From the NCBI GenBank assembly GCA_017609915.1, contig JAFCDA010000001.1, forward strand, positions 5,033-69,032: a DNA stretch of 64,000 nucleotides, given 5' to 3'. Below are positions 1 to 60,430 of this stretch, in pieces. Numbering within the stretch: the stretch's first letter is position 1; each line of letters begins with the position of its first letter. The DNA is from Candidatus Pacearchaeota archaeon. Lineage in GTDB: Archaea > Nanobdellota > Nanobdellia > Pacearchaeales > GW2011-AR1. The notes under the pieces were generated by a model, which saw only the letters and a program-made list of their open reading frames with translations, did not search any database and was not told the DNA's origin. Both the position numbers and the translations under genes were made by a program.

Positions 1-557
1 TTCAGGGGACTAGAAATCTAATTAATGCATGTGAAAAAAATAAAGTTAAAAAAATAATTTTTATGAGTTCATTAGATATTAAATTTAATACACCTTATGG
101 AAAATCTAAATTAAAAGCAGAAGAGATTATTAAAAACTCTAAATTAAAATATGTATTTTTAAGGCCTACTGCAATATATGGTGAAGGATTTAAAACAGGA
201 GTAAACTCTCTTGTTAAACTTGTAAAAAAAACACCTGTTTTTCCAATACCTGGTTCTGGAAAAAATCTATATCAACCACTTTATGTTAAAGATCTGATTT
301 TATTAATAAAACAAATTCTTGATAAAAATAAATTTAATAATAAAGTTTATTTTTTAGGTGGAAGTAAGATTATGAATTTAAATCAATTAGTAAATTTGAT
401 AAGTTTTAATCTTGGAAAGAAAACAATTAAAATTCATTTGCCAATTAAATCTAAAAACTTTAAATTTAATAAGATCTGCAGTAATGATAAGATCAAAAAA
501 GATTTTGATTTTGATCCTCTTCCGATAACAAAGGGGGTTCAGAAGATATTATGCTAG
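1..557 (+). CDS. NAD-dependent epimerase/dehydratase family protein, 5' partial (frame open from window edge)
   Basis: Frame open from nt 3: GTRNLINACEKNKVKKIIFMSS...YGKSKLKAE resembles the SDR sugar epimerase catalytic YxxxK region; only C-terminal part present. Confidence 0.7.
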   Translation, partial: QGTRNLINACEKNKVKKIIFMSSLDIKFNTPYGKSKLKAEEIIKNSKLKYVFLRPTAIYGEGFKTGVNSLVKLVKKTPVFPIPGSGKNLYQPLYVKDLILLIKQILDKNKFNNKVYFLGGSKIMNLNQLVNLISFNLGKKTIKIHLPIKSKNFKFNKICSNDKIKKDFDFDPLPITKGVQKILC

Positions 558-2100
558 AATAATCTGATCTATCAAACCTATAAATTATCAAACTTGGTTG
601 AGAGTTTTGTGCATCTACAAAATAAATCTTAAGAGGGTTTAAATTATTTTCTTGAGGATAAGTATAAGCCCAATCTTGATGAGGTTCATATATTGAAATC
701 ATTAAAAGAGTTATATTAGGATTAGATGCTACTAATTCTTCAAATTCTTCTTTTGTATTTGGAAGCCTTAGGGCTGTTATTTCACCATAAAATTGAATAT
801 GTGGCCAACTTTTTGTTACTATTACATCTTCTGGTTGAGAATTCTCTTTTATCCATAATCCTGCTTGTTTTACTTGCAAATAAGAATCTTTCTTTAATTT
901 AATTAAATTATCTGCGTCTTGTAATTGTAAATACCCAACTGTGCCTAAAAGAACTATTAAAAACAAAACTGCTATGAATTTGCCTTTTTTCCTTATGATC
1001 TCATATAAACTTATTATAAAAGCCCCAGCCATAGCAAAAACTACTGGAAAAATATTTATGATATATCTATCTTCGTTAAAAGCAACTGAAAAACTAACCA
1101 CAAGAATTGGTATTATTATTAATAAAATTAAAAATAAATCTTTTTTTAATTTAAAATCCTTTCCTTTAATTAACATATCAACCCCTATAAATATCTTATA
1201 TAAGGAGAATAATCCTAAGATAAAAAATATTAAAAGAGGCCATGAAAGAAGGGTTGGAAACATATGGATATAAGCCTTAAGATTAGTATATCCATTTGAA
1301 AAATATTCTCCTTCTGCAGGCGCATTCCATCCTCCTGCCTGAGTTATTACAAATCCTCCAAACTCAAAATAACCCCAAATAAGATATGGTGAAAGAATCA
1401 ATGCAAAGATTAATGCAGCTATCCATAATTCCTTTTTCTTAATAAATCTTAATCTTTCTGTTATTAAAAGATAAATTAAAAGAGAAAATAAGATTGTTGC
1501 TGTTGGTAATTTAAATAAGGTTCCGATTGCAACCATTACTGCTGCCCAGTATAATGATTTAACTGAGCCATCTTTAATATACTTATAAAGAAAAAAAGCA
1601 GAAAAAGTATAAAATGCTAAGGAAGGCACTTCAACTAAAAGTCTAAAACTGTAAAAAATATTAAGGTAAAAAACAGACATTAAAAATGTAGCTACTAAAG
1701 CTGCTTTTTTGTTATACAATTCTTTTGTAAAATAATATATTCCAAAAACAGAAGCCATTGATATAATCAACAAGAATAATCTTGGTAAAAACTCATTATA
1801 AGCTAATCTTAAAAATAATGACATGATAAAAGGAAAAAAAGCAGGCCTTACTACAAGAAATTCATATTCTAAGCCTAATGCCCAGGCTCTTGCCATACTC
1901 ATATATTCTGCCCCATCCCACCATAAAGGCTGGTTTTGGGTCATTAGAAAATAATATAAACGAATTATAAGAGCAAAGGCAATGATTAATGTAAAAATCA
2001 AATTGTGTGGTTTTTTTATCCAGTTAATTATTTTATCTGTTCTTTTTTCTATTGTTTTTTCTACATCTCCTACATCTTTTAAAAGTTCTTGTGCATCCAT
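493..2100 (-). CDS. GT-C fold membrane glycosyltransferase (GT39 / ArnT / PMT-like)
   Basis: 535 aa, about 11-13 hydrophobic helices in N-terminal two thirds plus soluble C-terminal domain, architecture of dolichyl/undecaprenyl-phosphate-sugar dependent GT-C enzymes; 65-nt convergent overlap with epimerase. Confidence 0.55.
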   Translation of the reverse strand: MDAQELLKDVGDVEKTIEKRTDKIINWIKKPHNLIFTLIIAFALIIRLYYFLMTQNQPLWWDGAEYMSMARAWALGLEYEFLVVRPAFFPFIMSLFLRLAYNEFLPRLFLLIISMASVFGIYYFTKELYNKKAALVATFLMSVFYLNIFYSFRLLVEVPSLAFYTFSAFFLYKYIKDGSVKSLYWAAVMVAIGTLFKLPTATILFSLLIYLLITERLRFIKKKELWIAALIFALILSPYLIWGYFEFGGFVITQAGGWNAPAEGEYFSNGYTNLKAYIHMFPTLLSWPLLIFFILGLFSLYKIFIGVDMLIKGKDFKLKKDLFLILLIIIPILVVSFSVAFNEDRYIINIFPVVFAMAGAFIISLYEIIRKKGKFIAVLFLIVLLGTVGYLQLQDADNLIKLKKDSYLQVKQAGLWIKENSQPEDVIVTKSWPHIQFYGEITALRLPNTKEEFEELVASNPNITLLMISIYEPHQDWAYTYPQENNLNPLKIYFVDAQNSQPSLIIYRFDRSDYSSIISSEPPLLSEEDQNQNLF

Positions 2101-2158
2101 TTTTTTATTTTATTCTTTTTCTATTATCTCTATAAACATTTAAGTTTAATTATCTAGC

Positions 2159-2183
2159 AAGGGCACATCCCTTCCGTAACCCT
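2159..2183 (-). promoter_or_regulatory. conserved 5' leader hairpin motif (coding strand AGGGTTACGGAAGGGATGTGCCCTT) 60-80 nt upstream of GT-C ATG
   Basis: Near-identical 25-mer also at 34173-34197 upstream of secF; can fold as 6-bp stem with GGAAGGGAT loop. Confidence 0.5.
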
Positions 2184-2192
2184 ATCTTTAAG

Positions 2193-2237
2193 CTTATCTT
2201 CTCAGCTGAGCATCTCTCCCTATGCTTATAAGATATT
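2193..2237 (-). promoter_or_regulatory. about 44-nt conserved promoter module ending in TATA box (cttataagatatt)
   Basis: cttatcttctcagctgagcatctctccctatgcttataagatatt; homologous copies at 31501-31544, 33107-33150, 34201-34244. Confidence 0.45.
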
Positions 2238-2289
2238 GATATTCTTTTTATCTCTTAAATGAGATTCCTTTCTATTTAAAAATTATTGT

Positions 2290-8037: not shown

Positions 8038-8146
8038 TTTATATTGTTTATCTGGAATTTGATAAGCTCAATTTAGTTTTGAAGATGATTTGTTTAACTT
8101 AATCTTATCTTCTCCAAAGCTCTAGGTTTAATAAGATATTGATATT

Positions 8147-12922: not shown

Positions 12923-13150
12923 CTAGTCTAAATAACCTAGGGCTTTTAATCTCTTTCTTATTGCCTCTTCTTCTTCCTTAGAAAATCCTTCTCCTTTAGT
13001 TTCTGGAGATTCAGATAATAATTGCCTTAAAATAAAGGTCACATATGCTGAAGGAGAATGCATCCCAGTTCCTTTTATCTTTTCTTTTATTTTATCTACT
13101 AATTGGGTTGGTAGAGAGATTGTACTAAATTTTGATTTTTTATTTTTCAT
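12923..13150 (-). CDS. ribbon-helix-helix (CopG/Arc-like) small protein
   Basis: 75 aa; STISLPTQLVDKIKEKI beta-strand-helix pattern of RHH; C-terminal tail RKRLKALGYLD. Confidence 0.4.
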   Translation of the reverse strand: MKNKKSKFSTISLPTQLVDKIKEKIKGTGMHSPSAYVTFILRQLLSESPETKGEGFSKEEEEAIRKRLKALGYLD

Positions 13151-13229: not shown

Positions 13230-13346
13230 ATGACTGAAGAAAACAATAATGAAGATAATAAAGATAAAGAAGAAGATAATGCATATACTCCTGAAGAAGA
13301 ATTAGAAGTAAAAAAAAGACTTGAGAGCTTGGGGTATTTGGATTAA
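13230..13346 (+). CDS. small acidic ORF (38 aa) ending in the same KKRLESLGYLD tail, hypothetical
   Basis: Not in ORF track (short); ATG 13230 to TAA 13346; tail matches C-terminus of neighbouring RHH protein. Confidence 0.2.
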   Translation: MTEENNNEDNKDKEEDNAYTPEEELEVKKRLESLGYLD

Positions 13347-18911: not shown

Positions 18912-19023
18912 AAGGTGAATAAACTAATATCTTATAAGTATAGGAAAGATATTCAATGAGGAGCTTAAACTTATCAGATAATAAAACTTAAGATTTATAG
19001 AGATATTTAAAATAAAATATAAA

Positions 19024-24774: not shown

Positions 24775-24938
24775 ATAAAAAATAATCTTAAAATATTAAA
24801 AGGTAACTAAATAATATCCATATCTTGATAAGAATAACGAGTGAGAAAAAGATTTGTAAAGCTTTAAAATGAGTAGAGATTCAAGATGGTTTGCATAACT
24901 TAAAGATATAATAAGATTCCAGTAAATAATATAAAAAA

Positions 24939-29136: not shown

Positions 29137-29223
29137 ATTTTTTGGTATTTATAAAAATATGATGAGATAAAGAAGAGGGATTAAGTTATTCAGATAATAT
29201 CTCTTGATTGAGCTTATAAAATA

Positions 29224-30840
29224 TTAAAATGTTTTTTTTATAGATTTTTTAACTAATTTTAAATCCTTAAATAATTTTTTTATAACTGATTTTATCACCA
29301 TTAAATCCTCTTTATCAAGAGAATGTGAAATAATTATTAAAGACAAGTAAAGTAAAATAAACAAAGAGGTTAAAATTATAATTGAAAAAACATTAATTGT
29401 AACTTTTTCTATTAAATAAAATAAAACTCCTGTTGGGATTATTGAAACTAAGATTATAGTAAACATCTTTCTTTTTAAAGGTATAAATGAAAGATGTTTT
29501 TTTGTTTGTATAATCAAAAGGGTATTTAAAAAGATTATAGATAAAACAGTTGCAAGAGAAGCTCCGATTAAACCATTTGAATTATCTAAAGAAAACAAAA
29601 CAGGTATTGGAACTAATATTGAATTTAATATTAAATTAACAATTGCAGATATAGATATATTAAACAAGATTAACTTAGATTTACCTAACATTGAAATAAG
29701 ATTTGTTGAAATCATAAATAATGCAGAAATAAATGTTCCAATTAGCAAAAATTTAAGGGCAATTTGTGCAATAACATATTGACTTCCAAAAAGGATATTT
29801 AATGATGCTCCTGAAAAAAAGAATATTAAAATAAAAATTGGAAGAATTGCCATAAATATCCATTTATTTACTTGTTTACTAAGCTGTTTGATTAAAGCAT
29901 TATTTTTTGCAGAATATTGTCTTGTTATAAGTGGAAAAAATAACTGCATAAATAATTGTGGGACAATCATTATAAGCATTGCAATTGGCACAGCTGCATT
30001 ATAAAACCCAACTTCTACTGCAGATTTATAATAACCTAAAGAAATAGTATCAATCCAATGAAAAATAATAGATATAGCTGCAAAAAATAATAATGGCCAG
30101 GAATATTGAAAAAACTCTTTACTAATCTTTGAATAATCTTTTTTCTCATAAGAACCAAAGATTTTATTTATTTTATTTTTACAAACTAAATAAGCAGCAA
30201 ATAATGTAAGAATTGAACCAGATATGTAAGACCAAACAACAGCATTTCCTCCTGAATTAAAACCTATGAAAATAAGAATTATAAGCACACCTACACGGAC
30301 TAAATTTTGAAAAATATTAAAAATAAAAGAATACCATCCAATCTTTTCAAACCCTCTAAGCACTGTGAGAAATATACTTGCAAGCATTACAGCAAGAATT
30401 GAAAAACTCATTATTTTTAGAAAAATAGAAAGGCTTGGATTATGAAATATTTGTATTGAAATAAAATCTGATAAACCAATTAAAACTATTGAAGCAATTA
30501 TCCCAGAGATTAAATAAAATCTCAGTGTTTTTCTAAATAAATACCTCATCTCATTAATCTTTTTTCTCTCTCTTAATAATGGGACAAATCTTAATAATCC
30601 ATCTACAAAACCAAAAGAAGCAATTGTGATAAAAAGAGGGATTACAGATAAAACAAGAGAAAATAATCCATAAATTTCTGGGCCATAATAACGAGCAATA
30701 ATTATCCTATAAGCATACATTAAAACTTTTGATAAAAAAAGTCCAATAAAAACAATAAAAGAAGATTTCATAATTAGTTTAAGAGATTTATTAAGCTGAT
30801 TTTCTCTTGTAATATGTTCCTGATTTTTCAAATGTTCCAT
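29224..30840 (-). CDS. polysaccharide/oligosaccharide flippase (MOP/Wzx family)
   Basis: 538 aa, about 14 TM helices, MATE-like Wzx architecture, located in glycan locus. Confidence 0.65.
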   Translation of the reverse strand: MEHLKNQEHITRENQLNKSLKLIMKSSFIVFIGLFLSKVLMYAYRIIIARYYGPEIYGLFSLVLSVIPLFITIASFGFVDGLLRFVPLLRERKKINEMRYLFRKTLRFYLISGIIASIVLIGLSDFISIQIFHNPSLSIFLKIMSFSILAVMLASIFLTVLRGFEKIGWYSFIFNIFQNLVRVGVLIILIFIGFNSGGNAVVWSYISGSILTLFAAYLVCKNKINKIFGSYEKKDYSKISKEFFQYSWPLLFFAAISIIFHWIDTISLGYYKSAVEVGFYNAAVPIAMLIMIVPQLFMQLFFPLITRQYSAKNNALIKQLSKQVNKWIFMAILPIFILIFFFSGASLNILFGSQYVIAQIALKFLLIGTFISALFMISTNLISMLGKSKLILFNISISAIVNLILNSILVPIPVLFSLDNSNGLIGASLATVLSIIFLNTLLIIQTKKHLSFIPLKRKMFTIILVSIIPTGVLFYLIEKVTINVFSIIILTSLFILLYLSLIIISHSLDKEDLMVIKSVIKKLFKDLKLVKKSIKKTF

Positions 30841-30904: not shown

Positions 30905-31333
30905 TCAAAAATATTTGTTTGGATATTTTTCTCTTAATACTAAATGTCTTATTAAACTAAATTCCCTAACATAAAGCATATTTTTATGCCCAAAGTATAA
31001 TAAATCTAATATTGAATGAAATATCATTCCAATTAAAGCAAAATAAAATCCTCTCCAGAAAAAAGATAAAATAAAAACAAGAATTAAAAATTCTATTGTG
31101 TGGAAAACCATCATTATTGGTTTTTTTAAATTTTTACTTAGTTTTTCAAGATAATTATAAGAATTTTTTAAATCCCAATCTTTTTTTCTTGCTACATACC
31201 ATAAGTAATGGTCAAAGTCTATTAAAATAGAACTTAAAAAAACTAAAAGAGTTTGGAAGATAGTTAATGAAAATAACCAATATAATAATGCTGAAAATAT
31301 TGCTCCTAATATGATGTGGTGTTTTGGCAGCAT
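30905..31333 (-). CDS. membrane protein, possible YdjM/DUF457-like membrane-bound hydrolase
   Basis: 142 aa, 4 TM, MLPKHHIILGAIFS N-terminus with conserved His residues. Confidence 0.35.
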   Translation of the reverse strand: MLPKHHIILGAIFSALLYWLFSLTIFQTLLVFLSSILIDFDHYLWYVARKKDWDLKNSYNYLEKLSKNLKKPIMMVFHTIEFLILVFILSFFWRGFYFALIGMIFHSILDLLYFGHKNMLYVREFSLIRHLVLREKYPNKYF

Positions 31334-31500
31334 TTTTACCTCTTTTTTATGTTTCTTTTTTTATCTCTATAATCTTAGGTTTAATTATCTGAGTTTTTCT
31401 TAATCCCAGTAGAACAAATCTCCCTATACTTATAAATTATTTGTATAAAATATTTATATTCTTATTGTATTTTTAAGCTATGCTCTTCTTTTCTTTAAAT

Positions 31501-31544
31501 CTTAATCTCATCATAACATCTTTTCTTATGCTTATAAGATATTT
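31501..31544 (-). promoter_or_regulatory. copy of 44-nt promoter module
   Basis: cttaatctcatcataacatcttttcttatgcttataagatattt. Confidence 0.4.
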
Positions 31545-33062: not shown

Positions 33063-33106
33063 TTTTTGTTTTTCATTTTTATTTAATTTTTAATTATCTT
33101 ATATCC

Positions 33107-33150
33107 TTAATCTTCTCATCTGAATCTCGTTCTATGCTTATAAGATATTA
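33107..33150 (-). promoter_or_regulatory. copy of 44-nt promoter module upstream of secD
   Basis: cttaatcttctcatctgaatctcgttctatgcttataagatatt. Confidence 0.45.
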
Positions 33151-33168
33151 ATTATTTTCCTCCATAAT

Positions 33169-34122
33169 TTAATCCCTCTCCTTCTTTTCCAAATACCATT
33201 TTAATATTGAAGCATTTGTAATCCATGTATTAAGAATATCAAAACCTAAACCAATTAACAAGATAGTGAATATTTGTTTTAAAACAGGTGAAAATGATTG
33301 AGTGATAATTAAAGCTACACTAAGTGCAATTATAGAAGTTAGAGTCATTGTTATCCCTGTTTTAAATGCATCTTTAAGTTTTGTGTTTATTTGCCCTTGT
33401 CTTTTTAATAGACGTGTTGTAAGCATAATATCAGTATCTACACTATAACCAATTAACATTAAAAATGCAATAATTCCTGCACTTGAAACTCTTATTCCTA
33501 ATATATTTACTAAAGCTAAAGTCATCATAATATCTGCAAAAGCAGAAAGAACAACTGCCATACTTGGTGCAAAAGTTCTAAAAATAATAAAAACAACTAT
33601 TGCCATTAAAATAAAAGATATTAAAATTGCAAATTGTAATTGTTTGTAAAAAGACTCTCCTAAAGTTGAGCCTGTTGAGACCACGCTTGAATTTTCACTT
33701 GTTAAGTCATAACCTAAGAAATCTTCTATTGAAGAAGTTATGGTTTTATACTCTTCAGAAGTTGATTCTATTGGAATTTCAATAATAATTGCTTCTTGTT
33801 TTCCTGTTCTAAAATTAGATAGTTCTCTGATATTAAAATCATCTATTTTCTGAGATAATCTGTTTGTTAAATCATTTATATTTATTTCTTCTTGTTCAGA
33901 AAAAATAGTTATTGTTGTTCCTCCTGTTAAAGAAACATCTCTTTTTATGAAGTCGTTGTTTTGCTGGTGGAAATATGCTATATAACCTAATGATAGGATT
34001 AATAAAATTAAGGGGATTAAAAGTAGTAACTTATAGTTTTTATTATAAAATTTTAGGGCTTTTCTTCCTAATTTCTTTTCTTCTTGTTCTATTTCATTGA
34101 GGATGTTGTTTTCTTGTTCCAT
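33169..34122 (-). CDS. secF: protein-export membrane protein SecF
   Basis: VSLTGGTTITIF motif and C-terminal SecD/SecF TM bundle; start set at MEQENN (34122) rather than track start 34182, which would overlap the conserved leader motif. Confidence 0.75.
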   Translation of the reverse strand: MEQENNILNEIEQEEKKLGRKALKFYNKNYKLLLLIPLILLILSLGYIAYFHQQNNDFIKRDVSLTGGTTITIFSEQEEININDLTNRLSQKIDDFNIRELSNFRTGKQEAIIIEIPIESTSEEYKTITSSIEDFLGYDLTSENSSVVSTGSTLGESFYKQLQFAILISFILMAIVVFIIFRTFAPSMAVVLSAFADIMMTLALVNILGIRVSSAGIIAFLMLIGYSVDTDIMLTTRLLKRQGQINTKLKDAFKTGITMTLTSIIALSVALIITQSFSPVLKQIFTILLIGLGFDILNTWITNASILKWYLEKKERD

Positions 34123-34172
34123 ATTTTGTTTTATCTGGTATCTTAATATCTTAAGCTGAATTGATGAGTGGC

Positions 34173-34197
34173 AAGGGTACATCCCTTCCGTAACCCT
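34173..34197 (-). promoter_or_regulatory. second copy of conserved 5' leader hairpin motif, upstream of secF
   Basis: aagggtacatcccttccgtaaccct versus aagggcacatcccttccgtaaccct at 2159-2183. Confidence 0.5.
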
Positions 34198-34200
34198 TTT

Positions 34201-34244
34201 CTTAATCTTCTCATCTGAGTATCTCTCTATGCTTATAAAATATT
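34201..34244 (-). promoter_or_regulatory. copy of 44-nt promoter module upstream of secF leader
   Basis: cttaatcttctcatctgagtatctctctatgcttataaaatatt. Confidence 0.45.
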
Positions 34245-34272
34245 AGTTTTTTATTTGATTTTTATTATTAAA

Positions 34273-34343
34273 TGCGCGGACTGGGAATCGAACCCAGGTT
34301 TTCTGGTTGGAAGCCAGAAGTTCTACCACTAAACTATCCACGC
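34273..34343 (-). tRNA. tRNA-Gly (anticodon TCC)
   Basis: Cloverleaf GCGTGGA-TA-GTTT-AGTGGTA-GAAC-T-TCTGG-CTTCCAA-CCAGA-AAAC-CTGGG-TTCGATT-CCCAG-TCCGCGC-A; no encoded CCA. Confidence 0.85.
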
Positions 34344-34392
34344 ATGATTTCACTAATTTCTAAGGGTTTTTAAAGATTATTAAGCCTTATGA

Positions 34393-34466
34393 TGCTCCTG
34401 ACAGGACTCGAACCTGCGACCCCTTCCTTAGGAGGGAAGTGCTCTATCCAACTGAGCTACAGGAGC
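34393..34466 (-). tRNA. tRNA-Arg (anticodon CCT)
   Basis: GCTCCTG-TA-GCTC-AGTTGGATA-GAGC-A-CTTCC-CTCCTAA-GGAAG-GGGTC-GCAGG-TTCGAGT-CCTGT-CAGGAGC-A. Confidence 0.85.
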
Positions 34467-39625: not shown

Positions 39626-39709
39626 TGCAGAGGATAGGATTCGAACCTATGAAGGCACTAAGCCACAAGATCTTGAGTCTTGCCCGTTTGACCACTCCGG
39701 AACCTCTGC
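39626..39709 (-). tRNA. tRNA-Leu (anticodon CAA), type II with long variable arm
   Basis: GCAGAGG-TT-CCG-GAGTGGTCAAA-CGG-G-CAAGA-CTCAAGA-TCTTG-TGGCTTAGTGCCTTCA-TAGGT-TCGAATC-CTATC-CTCTGC-A. Confidence 0.8.
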
Positions 39710-39780
39710 TTAAATATTATGAAAAAGCCAATAATTGTTTATATAAAAACCTTTATAAAGAGTTATTTTTAAGTTATATT

Positions 39781-39894
39781 GGAGACGACCATAATAATCT
39801 GGTCACACCTGATCCGATTTCCAACTCAGAAGTTAAGCAGATTATGTTTAAGGTATTAGTTTCAGAGATGAAGTGAAGCCATAAAGTTGTCTTC
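39781..39894 (+). rRNA. 5S ribosomal RNA (stand-alone)
   Basis: GGAGACGACC...CCGATTTCCAACTCAGAAGTTAAGC (loop B / helix III signature) ...GTTGTCTTC closing helix pairs with 5' end; 114 nt. Confidence 0.7.
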
Positions 39895-39931
39895 TTTATA
39901 TTCCAAACAACTTTATATAAAAAGCCAGTAT

Positions 39932-39944
39932 CTTATAAAATATA
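39932..39944 (+). promoter_or_regulatory. TATA box (cttataaaatata) 21 nt upstream of rpoN ATG, leaderless-type promoter
   Basis: Matches recurring cTTATAArATAT element found 20-25 nt upstream of many ATGs in this window. Confidence 0.4.
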
Positions 39945-39964
39945 AATAAACATAAAAATAAAAA

Positions 39965-40162
39965 ATGATAATACCTCTTCGTTGCATATCTTGTGGAAAG
40001 CCAATTGGTCATTTGTGGCAGGATTTTAAAGAAAGAACTGAAAAAGGAGAAGATTCTAAAAAAGTCTTAGATGAATTAGGTTTAGAAAGATATTGCTGCA
40101 GAGCTATGTTTTTAGGGCAAGTTGATATATTAGAGTTAGTTAATAAGTTTAAGAAGTTCTGA
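39965..40162 (+). CDS. rpoN: DNA-directed RNA polymerase subunit N (Rpo10)
   Basis: MIIPLRCISCGKPIGHLW...ERYCCRAMF zinc-binding motif of RpoN/Rpb10. Confidence 0.85.
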   Translation: MIIPLRCISCGKPIGHLWQDFKERTEKGEDSKKVLDELGLERYCCRAMFLGQVDILELVNKFKKF

Positions 40163-43031: not shown

Positions 43032-43034
43032 AAG

Positions 43035-43307
43035 ATGGGATTCGATTGTTATATTACCATTTTAAGAGATAATAGAGGTTTAATTGATTGGTTGAGAAAG
43101 GATTATAATCAAGAAGAAATAGATAAATTTGGTGATTTGGATGTTATCGAAATATTTAGAGGTGATTTAAAGAGTGTTCAAGAAAAAGCACATGATTATA
43201 TAGAACAACATAAAGGAAAAGAGAAAGATTTAAAGGCATTAAATAGAATAGAAATTTCAAGTAGATTAGAACAATTATCTAAAACGCAAGCAGAAGTGTC
43301 TGCTTAG
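43035..43307 (+). CDS. hypothetical protein
   Basis: 90 aa ORF. Confidence 0.3.
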   Translation: MGFDCYITILRDNRGLIDWLRKDYNQEEIDKFGDLDVIEIFRGDLKSVQEKAHDYIEQHKGKEKDLKALNRIEISSRLEQLSKTQAEVSA

Positions 43308-43316
43308 GAGCTCAAA

Positions 43317-43568
43317 ATGAAAGATGAAAAATATATAGATCATATAAAAAAATTTGTCGCTGAAAAACAAGGAGGATATAATAAAATAGGCTTAGTTAAA
43401 GAATTAAGAACCTATGGATTAATAAAAGATTCAAGAGATCCAGGACTTATACCTGCTAAAAATATTGTAGAAAGAATGATTCAAGAGGGGATATTAGAAA
43501 TGAAAACTCAAGAAGTAGGGGCATTTTTACAAATGAATTTACCTAAAAGGGCATTTGTTGGGTGGTAA
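43317..43568 (+). CDS. hypothetical protein (possible winged-helix)
   Basis: 83 aa ORF. Confidence 0.3.
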   Translation: MKDEKYIDHIKKFVAEKQGGYNKIGLVKELRTYGLIKDSRDPGLIPAKNIVERMIQEGILEMKTQEVGAFLQMNLPKRAFVGW

Positions 43569-50056: not shown

Positions 50057-50193
50057 AAATAAATAATAATATAAACCCATATCTTATAAGGCCGTCTTTT
50101 AGAAAAAGATGGTGACAAAAATTATAGAGATGTTATGAGAAGATTAAGTAATTCATCTTCAAAACTCAAGATTAAGAGATATCAAATAAAAAA

Positions 50194-59671: not shown

Positions 59672-59790
59672 AAGTTCTTTAAGGTTTTTTATATTATAAA
59701 CCTATTTAATCTAACTAGTATCTTATAAAATATAGATAAAAATAAGTTTAAAAACAAAAACTTAATAAATATTACTTCCTTTTATATGAA

Positions 59791-60018
59791 ATGGTAAAAA
59801 GGTGGATTCAAAAAACTAAAATTAAAAAAGGAGCATTACATAAACAATTAGGGGTTCCTGAAGAGAGAAAAATTCCCATTACATTATTAAACAAAATTAT
59901 ATCTGCAGAAGTAGGAAAGGTTATTAAAAACTCTTCTAAATCAAGTAAAAAAATGATTAAGGTTACATCTTTACTTAAAAAAAGAGCTAATTTAGCTAAA
60001 AACTTAAAGAAGATATAA
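59791..60018 (+). CDS. small basic protein, hypothetical
   Basis: 75 aa, KGALHKQLGVPEERKIP motif, lysine-rich. Confidence 0.3.
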   Translation: MVKRWIQKTKIKKGALHKQLGVPEERKIPITLLNKIISAEVGKVIKNSSKSSKKMIKVTSLLKKRANLAKNLKKI

Positions 60019-60430
60019 CTAGGCCCTATTGAAGTTATGGACTGCCTTAAACCATTATAAATAGCATCCTATCCAATAAAGGCCTAGTTTAATTCTTCCT
60101 ATCTGTTAGGGAGGGTCTTGATCTTTCATTTTACAGCGGTTTAATTTTAATGTTTTTGAATAATGGATTAGTTTTGGAAAAAGAGTTTTAAAGGGAAGTT
60201 ATCAGCAAGATATTTGAAAAATCAGCCATCATATTGTGATAACCTTTTTGCATTATCAAAAACAAAAAATATGAAATTGGGTTCCTCCTTTTTTATTATT
60301 AAATTTATAAATATATTAAAGAAAAGTTATTTATAAACAGTCAGAAGTAAACATAAATATATTAGATATATAGCAATCCTCTATATTATTGAATATAAAA
60401 CCTTAAATAAACAAAAAAAATTCCAATAAT

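Follow-up and report, generated by a model that had tools for sequence, protein, structure and literature searches.

Why do secF and a glycosyltransferase gene carry almost the same sequence upstream of their start codons? The question arises from a 64,000-nt stretch of Candidatus Pacearchaeota archaeon DNA (assembly GCA_017609915.1, contig JAFCDA010000001.1, positions 5,033 to 69,032; "the window" below). In a first-pass annotation of this DNA, the regions before secF and before a gene for a GT-C fold glycosyltransferase (PMT_2/GT39-like; GT39 below) were described as a conserved structured 5′ leader, composed of a 44-nt module and a near-identical 25-mer, and proposed to be an RNA regulatory element or protein-binding site that co-regulates secretion and glycosylation. 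The feature is real and non-random, and the boundaries drawn around it were too narrow. The two regions are probably copies of a lineage-specific modular promoter-plus-leader cassette, ~90 to 140 bp long, with an optional RNA hairpin module, a reading of the sequence that we hold with moderate confidence.

The sequence shared by secF and GT39

With up to 3 mismatches allowed, a pattern search of the window finds the 25-mer AGGGTTACGGAAGGGATGTRCCCTT only at 2159-2183(-) and 34173-34197(-), while none of 100 shuffled controls contains a match (chance expectation 0). Blastn aligns the upstream modules of GT39 and secF with 88% identity over 42 nt and the hairpin unit that contains the 25-mer with 96% identity over 27 nt. 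On the minus (coding) strand, both loci have the same order, a TATA-type box, the common module, the 25-mer, and the ATG, with the 25-mer placed 51 to 75 nt before the secF ATG (34122) and 59 to 83 nt before the GT39 ATG (2100). The genes located 3′ of the two regions encode, according to Pfam, the 317-aa SecF (PF02355; 33169-34122(-)) and the PMT_2/GT39-type GT-C glycosyltransferase (493-2100(-)). Hence, the reported co-occurrence of module and near-identical 25-mer in the same order stands far beyond chance, and the motif is not scattered over many random positions; both 25-mers follow the shared TATA-containing module. The sequence TTATAAGCATAG occurs exactly three times in the window, at 2220-2231, 34227-34238, and 33132-33143. 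The third copy, absent from the first-pass annotation, sits before secD.

Ordinary promoters in the window

The G+C content of the window is 27%, and its named SecF homologues are annotated as Candidatus Pacearchaeota, or merely as "archaeon". The source is a tiny Pacearchaeota-like (DPANN) archaeon, in which genes mostly have a TATA box at a fixed distance and no leader. A promoter matrix trained on 25 other genes in the window has the consensus AAAAATCTTTAAAAAAAC, with AATAATCTTTAAATA as the typical site. This site starts 35 to 37 nt before the ATG in 12 of the 25 genes, which places TTTAAA ~29 nt before the ATG. Because the spacing between AATAATCTTTAAATA and the ATG is rigid, mRNAs of ordinary genes are expected to be leaderless, and the premise that the other genes look leaderless is upheld. 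Taken across the genome, this spacing implies an almost wholly leaderless transcriptome, the cassette genes excepted.

At the position typical of leaderless mRNAs, the genome's own matrix detects no canonical box in the cassette genes, and the cassette box is a variant of the general box AATAATCTTTAAATA. Boxes like it are the only promoter-like element before two other genes. A TTTATAAAG box precedes the 5′ end of the 5S rRNA gene by 28 nt, and the one box of rpoN, ATCTTATAAAATAT, lies 32 nt from its ATG (39928-39964(+)), a region that constitutes an "empty site" for the cassette, see below. Judging from these two boxes, TTATAA-type boxes appear to be working promoters in this genome. The 5S rRNA gene (39781-39895(+)) is itself isolated, lying between a divergent tRNA-Leu(CAA) gene and rpoN (39626-40162), and the window has neither a 16S nor a 23S rRNA gene close to it.

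Anatomy and copies of the cassette

Pattern scans, a 13-sequence alignment, and nhmmer profiles identify the same architecture before many genes. The 5′ module, boxA, reads (A/T)AATATCTTATAAG(C/T)ATAG (core ATATCTTATAAG(C/T)ATAG) and is followed, after a gap of ~10 nt, by CAGATGAGAAGATTAAG. The middle part is variable, being either empty or occupied by one of several hairpins. The 3′ module, boxC, has two or three sub-types (ACTCATCAAYTCAGCTTAAAGATAT..., ..CAGATAATTAAACTTAAGATTTATAGAGATA.., and ..ATCTTCAAAACT...) and contains another TATA-like box; an A-rich run then extends to the ATG.

In the secF cassette, the first part of boxA is the BRE/TATA-type box CTAATATTTTATAAGCATAG (BRE, transcription factor B recognition element; 34227-34246(-)), which resembles both the general box AATAATCTTTAAATA and the boxes of the 5S rRNA gene and rpoN. 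The second part, CAGATGAGAAGATTAAGAAA (34198-34217(-)), spans the predicted transcription start at ~34209-34210, where start positions are predicted from the 29-nt TATA-to-ATG spacing of the leaderless genes. Then follow the 27-nt hairpin unit AGGGTTACGGAAGGGATGTACCCTTGC (34171-34197(-)), which includes the 25-mer (34173-34197), and a type I boxC, CACTCATCAATTCAGCTTAAGATATTAAGATACCAGATAAAACAAAAT (34123-34170(-)), which holds the second TATA-like box CTTAAGATAT 33 nt before the ATG. The genes for tRNA-Arg(CCT) and tRNA-Gly(TCC) (34272-34466(-)) are located directly upstream. The GT39 cassette consists of the box TCAATATCTTATAAGCATAG followed by GGGAGAGAT (2211-2239(-)), a variant of the boxA core, GCTCAGCTGAGAAGATAAGCTTAAAGAT (2184-2210(-)), the second copy of the 27-nt unit in its G variant (2157-2183(-)), and a type II boxC (TAGATAATTAAACTTAAATGTTTATAGAGATA...) with the A-rich run to the ATG (2101-2156(-)).

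At least nine cassette copies are present in the window, the gene for a 142-aa membrane protein accounting for two of them. The secD cassette (33063-33151(-)) contains the best boxA match in the window and lacks a hairpin, while its boxC is partly deleted and it ends in an upstream open reading frame (uORF). Two tandem cassettes (distal 31441-31543(-), proximal 31334-31442(-)) precede the 142-aa membrane-protein gene, and single copies precede the genes for an FkbM-type methyltransferase (18924-19023(+)), a B12-binding radical-SAM protein (8038-8142(-)), and ribosomal protein S9 (50079-50193(+), with an extra insert after the box). A degenerate and weak copy, found by eye, lies before a radical-SAM/SPASM gene (24820-24938(+)). 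A weak orphan copy (29148-29239(+); E = 1.8), with T8 at its end, is located in a convergent intergenic gap. The boxA profile has 13 matches in the window, all of which fall within the 14.5% that lies outside open reading frames (ORFs) and RNA genes. The six strong matches (E < 0.001) and the three copies found by eye are all oriented toward the ATG of the next gene. These next genes, GT39, secF, secD, the 142-aa membrane-protein gene, FkbM, the two radical-SAM genes, and S9, are functionally unrelated (Pfam calls PMT_2, SecD_SecF_C, FkbM, radical SAM, and ribosomal S9). The proposal that the 44-nt module is a signal for secretion and glycosylation does not survive this result, as the module heads a cassette before at least nine unrelated genes in the window; nor is it specific to two genes, since relatives have the cassette before rpoN and the S13 operon as well.

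The uORF in the secD cassette has five codons (ATGAAAAACAAAAAATGA, MKNKK*; 33076-33059(-)), and its stop codon overlaps the secD ATG (ATGA). The same arrangement is present in the related contigs L001, L003, L004, and L117 and absent in L005. The overlap suggests either coupling by termination and reinitiation or the remnant of an N-terminal extension. The conserved 142-aa protein (30905-31333(-)), encoded after secD in the close relatives examined, spans the membrane several times and contains an IDFDH motif; neither Pfam nor NCBIfam has a match to it.

Presence and absence in related genomes

The cassette family is found only in contigs with a SecF at least 80% identical to that of the window, i.e., the close-clade contigs L001/L095 (GCA_004196315.1), L003, L004, L005, L014, L094, L096, and L117. 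In more distant relatives, ~0.8 Mb in total, three marginal matches were obtained. Further genes behind cassettes in the related contigs are rpoN, the S13-S4-S11 operon, a nucleoside deoxyribosyltransferase gene, and, in L003, a cut RNA polymerase subunit gene (Pfam RNA_pol_L/RNA_pol_A_bac).

Among genomes with a SecF 80 to 94% identical, one and the same site can have a cassette, lack it, or have two, as the junction between tRNA-Gly and secF illustrates. One cassette with the hairpin is present in the window and in the 99% strain L094, one without the hairpin in L014, and two in tandem in L001; L003 has a degenerate spacer. There is no cassette in L117, L118, L119, L004, or L017, where the secF ATG is located 12 to 27 nt after the tRNA (cassette-less tRNA-Gly(TCC)-secF spacers: L004 735-781, L117 1075-1127, L118 1905-1955, L119 966-1004, and L017 7940-7960), and L018 has a plain spacer of 38 nt between tRNA and secF. 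The gains and losses at this junction must be recent, because the SecF proteins of L014, L001, L003, and L117 are 90 to 94% identical to each other. In the relatives that lack the cassette, this short distance suggests that tRNA-Arg, tRNA-Gly, secF, and secD probably form one transcript, in which the 5′ end of the mRNA would be generated via processing of the tRNA 3′ end. The spacing of secF and secD varies in a similar manner. In relatives with a SecD 66 to 72% identical to that of the window (L013 is an exception) and in L118, the two genes abut or are at most ~25 nt apart, while most members of the close clade have a cassette between them.

The rpoN locus provides a comparison of filled and empty sites. 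It is empty in the window and carries, in L001 and L003, a cassette body of 61 to 75 nt between the box and the ATG-proximal stretch. Moreover, boxA of the window's secF cassette is 85 to 87% identical to paralogous copies compared to 70% to its L014 orthologue, while the 3′ half of the same leader is clearly orthologous to that of L014; the leaders are therefore recombinant mosaics. The length of the middle part ranges from empty (window secD) through 2 nt (L001 secD) and 27 nt (window secF) to 47 to 50 nt (L003 and L005 secD).

The 27-nt hairpin unit

When aligned with the orthologous L014 leader, the 25-mer corresponds to a clean 25-nt gap. The unit common to the two window copies is 27 nt long (34171-34197 and 2157-2183), has unrelated flanks on both sides, and resides in two host cassettes of different boxC sub-types. 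On these alignments, the 25-mer is part of a precise 25- to 27-nt insertion into the variable middle of just two window cassettes. An ATG within the 25-mer (GGGATGTAC, start 34182) is in frame with secF, so that a mechanical ORF call gives 337 aa (34122-34182). The N-terminal extension of SecF in this call is an artefact and exists only where the hairpin is inserted.

The predicted fold pairs AAGGGU with ACCCUU and ACG with UGU around the loop GAAGGGA (-8.5 kcal/mol; z = -1.0), and the sense-strand hairpin would display GGAAGGGAU (GGAAGRGAU in RNA). Even when as many as 6 mismatches are tolerated, the 25-mer is absent from ~1 Mb of related DNA except in strain L094, the secF copy of which has G for A, thereby changing a U-A pair to U.G with the pairing kept. 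The orthologous secF and GT39 leaders in L014, L001, L095, and L096 lack it. A covariance model built on three copies has as its best non-self match the sense-strand hairpin AAUUGGUUUAAGGAAGAGAUUAAGCCGAGCAAU in the leader of the 142-aa gene in L001 and L003. Its score of 17.5 bits is borderline (E = 0.013 to 0.12, depending on the search space). In this hairpin the loop GGAAGAGAU is conserved and eight of the nine pairs are kept, four of them changed on both sides. In the alignment, 94% of the cells pair, 3 of 500 shuffles are as good, and slid controls show 19 to 50% pairing. Several of the L001/L003 pairs are G.U, which would be mismatches on the opposite strand, and this fits a sense-strand RNA. 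It is the location that gives the match weight, as far less than 1% of the sequence searched consists of cassette leaders.

In relatives, the slot holds other hairpins that are unrelated to this one (z = -5.7, -3.6, and -2.75). One of these, UUAAGUUAUAC...GUGUAACUUAA (z = -5.7), is located before secF and has a paralogue before GT39 in the same genome (GCA_004196315.1) and a third, diverged copy before the cut RNA polymerase subunit gene in L003. Since unrelated hairpins fill the slot, one of them before an RNA polymerase gene, it is a general slot and not specific to secF and GT39. The idea that the 25-mer co-regulates secretion and glycosylation is likewise contradicted by secD, the partner of secF, whose cassette lacks the 25-mer, and a tie of the 25-mer to secF and GT39 by its absence from the orthologous leaders of both genes in relatives. 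As to the proposed stem, the behavior of the strain variant and of the borderline homologue agrees with a hairpin in the sense strand, while the folding energy is unexceptional for a G-rich sequence. The covariation check that had been suggested gave four of nine pairs changed on both sides, in a single borderline homologue and a model-fitted alignment.

New matches of a second-round covariance model fell inside coding sequence and were regarded as noise; GAAGRG-loop hairpins are common by chance in purine-rich coding DNA and were not used as a generic signature; and a MAFFT/RNAalifold analysis of the different slot hairpins gave an alignment that ignored structure, with no pairs predicted. 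No trans-acting antisense partner for the hairpin loop was found in the window beyond chance. In viral contigs the 25-mer has no match, and the 19 boxA matches all encode "DEKIK" in unrelated phage contigs. A REP/REPIN-type palindrome was also rejected, given that only two copies of the 27-mer exist in 64 kb, both in the same orientation relative to their cassettes, and that ~1 Mb from relatives adds none; no genome-wide search for a RAYT gene was made.

A model for the cassette

These data can be accommodated in a model in which the cassette has propagated to many intergenic sites within one narrow Pacearchaeota-like clade, where it would supply its own BRE/TATA promoter to a gene that in relatives is leaderless or co-transcribed with its upstream neighbor. 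The distal box would direct transcription to start ~29 nt after the first T of TTATAA, i.e., at ~34209 for secF and ~2202 for GT39, and CAGATGAGAAGATTAAG would span this start. The resulting leaders would be ~87 nt (secF) and ~102 nt (GT39) long, in keeping with the earlier suggestion of unusually long leaders, which is implied by the distance of the TATA-type boxes of these two homologous regions from the ATG. The inserted unit would fold in the sense RNA, near the 5′ end, into a 9-bp interrupted stem displaying GGAAGRGAU. In this scenario, the hairpin is an optional add-on that might act as a binding site for some factor or as a 5′-proximal stabilizing hairpin. The sequences themselves demonstrate the family, its modular build, its gene-directed position between genes, its variation among close relatives, and the origin of the 25-mer as an insertion; firing of the distal box, the start of transcription, and any role of the hairpin after transcription are inferred.

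A number of results weigh against this model. The transcription start is predicted from spacing, and the TATA-like box of boxC lies 28 to 40 nt before many ATGs; it could be the real promoter of leaderless mRNAs, in which case boxA and the hairpin would be untranscribed upstream DNA. Four of the weaker boxA matches (13419-, 29149+, 50703-, and 61508-) lack a gene that they could drive. The secF and GT39 leaders each have a folding z of -0.9, and 21 copies folded from the predicted start give a mean z of -0.7, with 4 of the 21 below -1.64. Neither strand is systematically the more stable, with 11 copies favoring each. The z of -1.0 for the 25-mer is in the range expected for its composition, covariance matches of 15 to 19 bits elsewhere fell inside coding DNA, and the compensatory signal depends on a single independent sequence, which was aligned by fitting it to the model. 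The complementarity of a GAUGAG/CUCAUC stem around the variable middle exceeds that of mononucleotide shuffles but not that of the reversed-sequence control. Moreover, identity at four-fold sites between the compared genomes is 67 to 87%, so that conservation of orthologous leaders alone is no proof of selection.

With respect to the earlier description as a "structured leader", a hairpin is predicted in the 25-mer, while the leaders as a class are not significantly structured. Individual leaders differ in this regard. The 230-nt leader of the 142-aa gene in L001 (GCA_004196315.1; 12640-12846(+)) folds into a multi-branched structure of -29.6 kcal/mol (z = -3.7; 0 of 200 shuffles as stable), compared to -15.0 for the antisense strand, and the first of its hairpins is the one that may be homologous to the 25-mer. 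Inclusion of the GAUGAG/CUCAUC stem gives z = -2 to -4.8; this stem lies ~5 nt upstream of the predicted start and shows almost no covariation. In Rfam 15, only tRNAs and 5S rRNA reach the gathering threshold in the window, and permissive scans of the two leaders and the L001 leader gave no credible family. A leader peptide was considered and rejected. The MRRL... mini-ORFs that start at a conserved ATGAG have 2 to 27 codons, their frame does not persist across inserts, some copies have CTG, GTG, or TTG in place of the ATG, and the peptide is not conserved. A box C/D small RNA was rejected as well, AUGAUGA being present in two copies only, with no consistent CUGA and with Rfam snoRNA matches at chance level.

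Alternative explanations

The main rival operates at the level of DNA. Here, the boxC box is the real promoter, the mRNA is leaderless, and the hairpin never enters the mRNA; boxA and its surroundings would then either be bound upstream by a global transcription factor, as an operator or activator site, or form a second promoter, divergent or tandem. The position of the proximal box, 28 to 33 nt before the ATG in secF, secD (relative to the uORF), the radical-SAM/B12 gene, L001 rpoN, and L096 GT39, is as expected from this explanation, as are the rpoN comparison, in which the ATG-proximal part is conserved together with its spacing, and the weak structure of the leaders. However, the genome's own matrix gives the proximal boxes poor scores, the AATAAT part upstream is missing from them, and their spacing varies from 22 to 49 nt across copies compared to the tight 35 to 37 nt of ordinary genes. 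Moreover, the distal box agrees with those found before the 5S rRNA gene and rpoN, and the strand-specific, G.U-rich hairpins argue for an RNA transcribed in the sense direction. Collectively, we consider this explanation somewhat unlikely. A selfish repeat of the MITE (miniature inverted-repeat transposable element) or BOX type, with no host function, would account for the variation in presence, absence, and tandem copies at orthologous sites in close genomes, for the modular anatomy with a variable middle, for the orphan copies, and for the narrow distribution. Its termini would be the TATA-like palindromes, and the gene-directed placement would reflect the sites where insertions are tolerated; inverted 10-nt arms do bracket the secF copy. 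This proposal nevertheless has to explain why all the strong copies are co-oriented with the next gene and why copies are located where a promoter is needed, e.g., at secD after its separation from secF. In addition, neither terminal inverted repeats nor target-site duplications that hold across the copies were found, and no transposase is linked to the copies in the sequence examined. Hence, a purely selfish origin seems unlikely.

The explanation put forward in the first-pass annotation, a dedicated cis-acting RNA or protein-binding site formed by module and 25-mer that co-regulates secretion (secF) and glycosylation (GT39), draws support from the 27-nt unit, found in 64 kb only before these two genes, and from the fact that its sole candidate homologue precedes another gene for an integral membrane protein. 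The stem is kept in the strain variant, and in GCA_004196315.1 the secF and GT39 leaders share a hairpin of different sequence in the same slot. That hairpin, however, is also present in diverged form before the RNA polymerase subunit gene in L003, and three membrane-protein genes are too few for significance. Together with the presence of the 44-nt module before at least nine unrelated genes, a secD cassette that has no hairpin, and secF and GT39 leaders without the 25-mer in L014, L001, L095, and L096, this makes dedicated co-regulation of the two genes quite improbable. Finally, each cassette could be a gene for a small RNA of ~70 to 100 nt with its own promoter, and read-through into the next gene would be incidental. 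The orphan copy at 29148-29239, which ends in T8, the other weak copies that point away from any gene, and the tandem cassettes would be in line with such genes. Yet no oligo-T terminator is present between cassette and ATG in the gene-associated copies, no Rfam family matches, and the content of the middle part is not conserved; we therefore regard small RNA genes as very unlikely. Compared to these alternatives, the promoter-plus-leader cassette is the explanation that we favor.

Relation to known elements

The closest concept is that of putative mobile promoters, i.e., similar 5′ regions before non-homologous genes of one genome without a recognizable mobile element, which may carry RNA motifs along (Matus-Garcia, Nijveen, van Passel 2012; PMC3575422). 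In that survey, upstream regions had to be at least 80% identical over at least 50 nt, and no promoter family was common to Archaea and Bacteria (PMC3575422). By blastn, single segments in the window are just under 50 nt. GT39 and secF share 42 nt (88%) and 27 nt (96%), split by an indel, and the secD and secF upstream regions share 45 nt (89%), just below the cut-off. The downstream genes are non-paralogous, apart from secD and secF, which are distant paralogues; the others are unrelated according to Pfam. The cassette differs from putative mobile promoters in its BRE/TATA-type box, in its exchangeable hairpin slot, and in that leaderless or co-transcribed genes would become leadered.

The pneumococcal BOX elements (boxA-boxB(n)-boxC) are likewise intergenic modular repeats with conserved ends, a middle of variable number, and a narrow lineage; they are co-transcribed with neighboring genes, transpose slowly, are probably parasitic according to the authors, and are not promoter cassettes (PMC3049150). 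Conserved A and C modules around a variable middle are found here too, a resemblance in architecture only and not one of homology. There is no sequence relation, the elements belong to another domain of life, and the cassettes differ in their uniform gene-directed orientation and promoter-like 5′ module. The Correia repeat-enclosed elements of Neisseria (~100-150 bp) are intergenic, create promoters, are co-transcribed, and vary between close strains; their hallmarks are terminal inverted repeats of 26 nt, duplication of a TA target, binding sites for IHF, and processing by RNase III (PMC2649163). Polymorphism for presence and absence between close genomes, as in MITEs and Correia elements, also characterizes the cassettes. 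By contrast, the other Correia hallmarks were not found in them, and the sequences are not related. Inverted arms of 10 nt are present only at the ends of the secF copy, other copies having different or internal repeats, and the apparent symmetry of the cassette ends arises because the box CTTATAAG is palindromic. Comparison of the filled and empty rpoN sites places the insert between ...AAAATAT and ...GAGATAT, and at the tRNA-Gly|secF site no target-site duplication is visible. A propagated promoter/leader repeat is a kind of element already known; the present example comes from a DPANN archaeon, has a modular slot for hairpins, and is no new class of system.

Two bacterial systems can be compared with the hairpin, the first being no more than a lead. 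CsrA/RsmA proteins, where CsrA is bacterial, bind hairpins with GGA in the loop, and selection in vitro (SELEX, systematic evolution of ligands by exponential enrichment) gave the consensus RUACARGGAUGU. The 25-mer can be read as UUAC-GGAAG-GGAUGU-A, i.e., UAC...GGAUGU with GGA in the loop of a 5′-leader hairpin, but its predicted loop is longer than in the consensus. A tblastn search of the window and of the related loci examined, with CsrA of E. coli as the query, detected no homologue. Stem-loops at the 5′ terminus are also known to stabilize bacterial mRNAs, such as those with the ompA, ermC, and aprE leaders. Several cassettes would place a hairpin 2 to 20 nt from the RNA 5′ end, should transcription start ~29 nt after the box. 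In contrast to those leaders, however, a stable 5′ hairpin is missing from many cassette copies, and the decay machinery of Archaea differs.

Why the cassette matters depends on its activity. The DPANN archaea are uncultivated and the organization of their transcription is almost unknown. This locus reveals a very regular leaderless promoter grammar and, beside it, a distinct set of genes (those for ribosomal proteins, RNA polymerase, Sec, and envelope glycosylation among them) served by a copied unit that is gained and lost between near-identical genomes. If active, the cassette would illustrate from nature how promoters propagate in Archaea and how operons break up (tRNA-secF-secD, with secF and secD separated), and it would be a compact promoter-plus-leader part with a slot that tolerates hairpin inserts, and the GGAAGRGAU hairpin would be a candidate handle for finding an RNA-binding regulator. 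If inactive, it would simply be a lineage-specific intergenic repeat. A bolder extension is that the family is an archaeal counterpart of BOX, Correia, and putative mobile promoter elements that spreads within a DPANN lineage and rewires operons, making leaderless or tRNA-co-transcribed genes into leadered genes with transcription of their own, and that GGAAGRGAU in the slot is the operator for an RNA-binding regulator of membrane-protein mRNAs (SecF, the GT39 glycosyltransferase, and the 142-aa membrane protein being the putative targets). This extension is speculative, and we give it little chance of being correct.

Other features of the window

Two stretches, 59672-60430 and 43032-43561, have no ORF of at least 100 aa and no Rfam match. 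At the start of the former is a box of the cassette type (CTAGTATCTTATAAAATATAG at 59715), and no gene follows it. Two small convergent ORFs, 12923-13150(-) (75 aa) and 13230-13346(+) (38 aa), for which no family was assigned, encode a common C-terminal sequence, KRL(K/E)(A/S)LGYLD.

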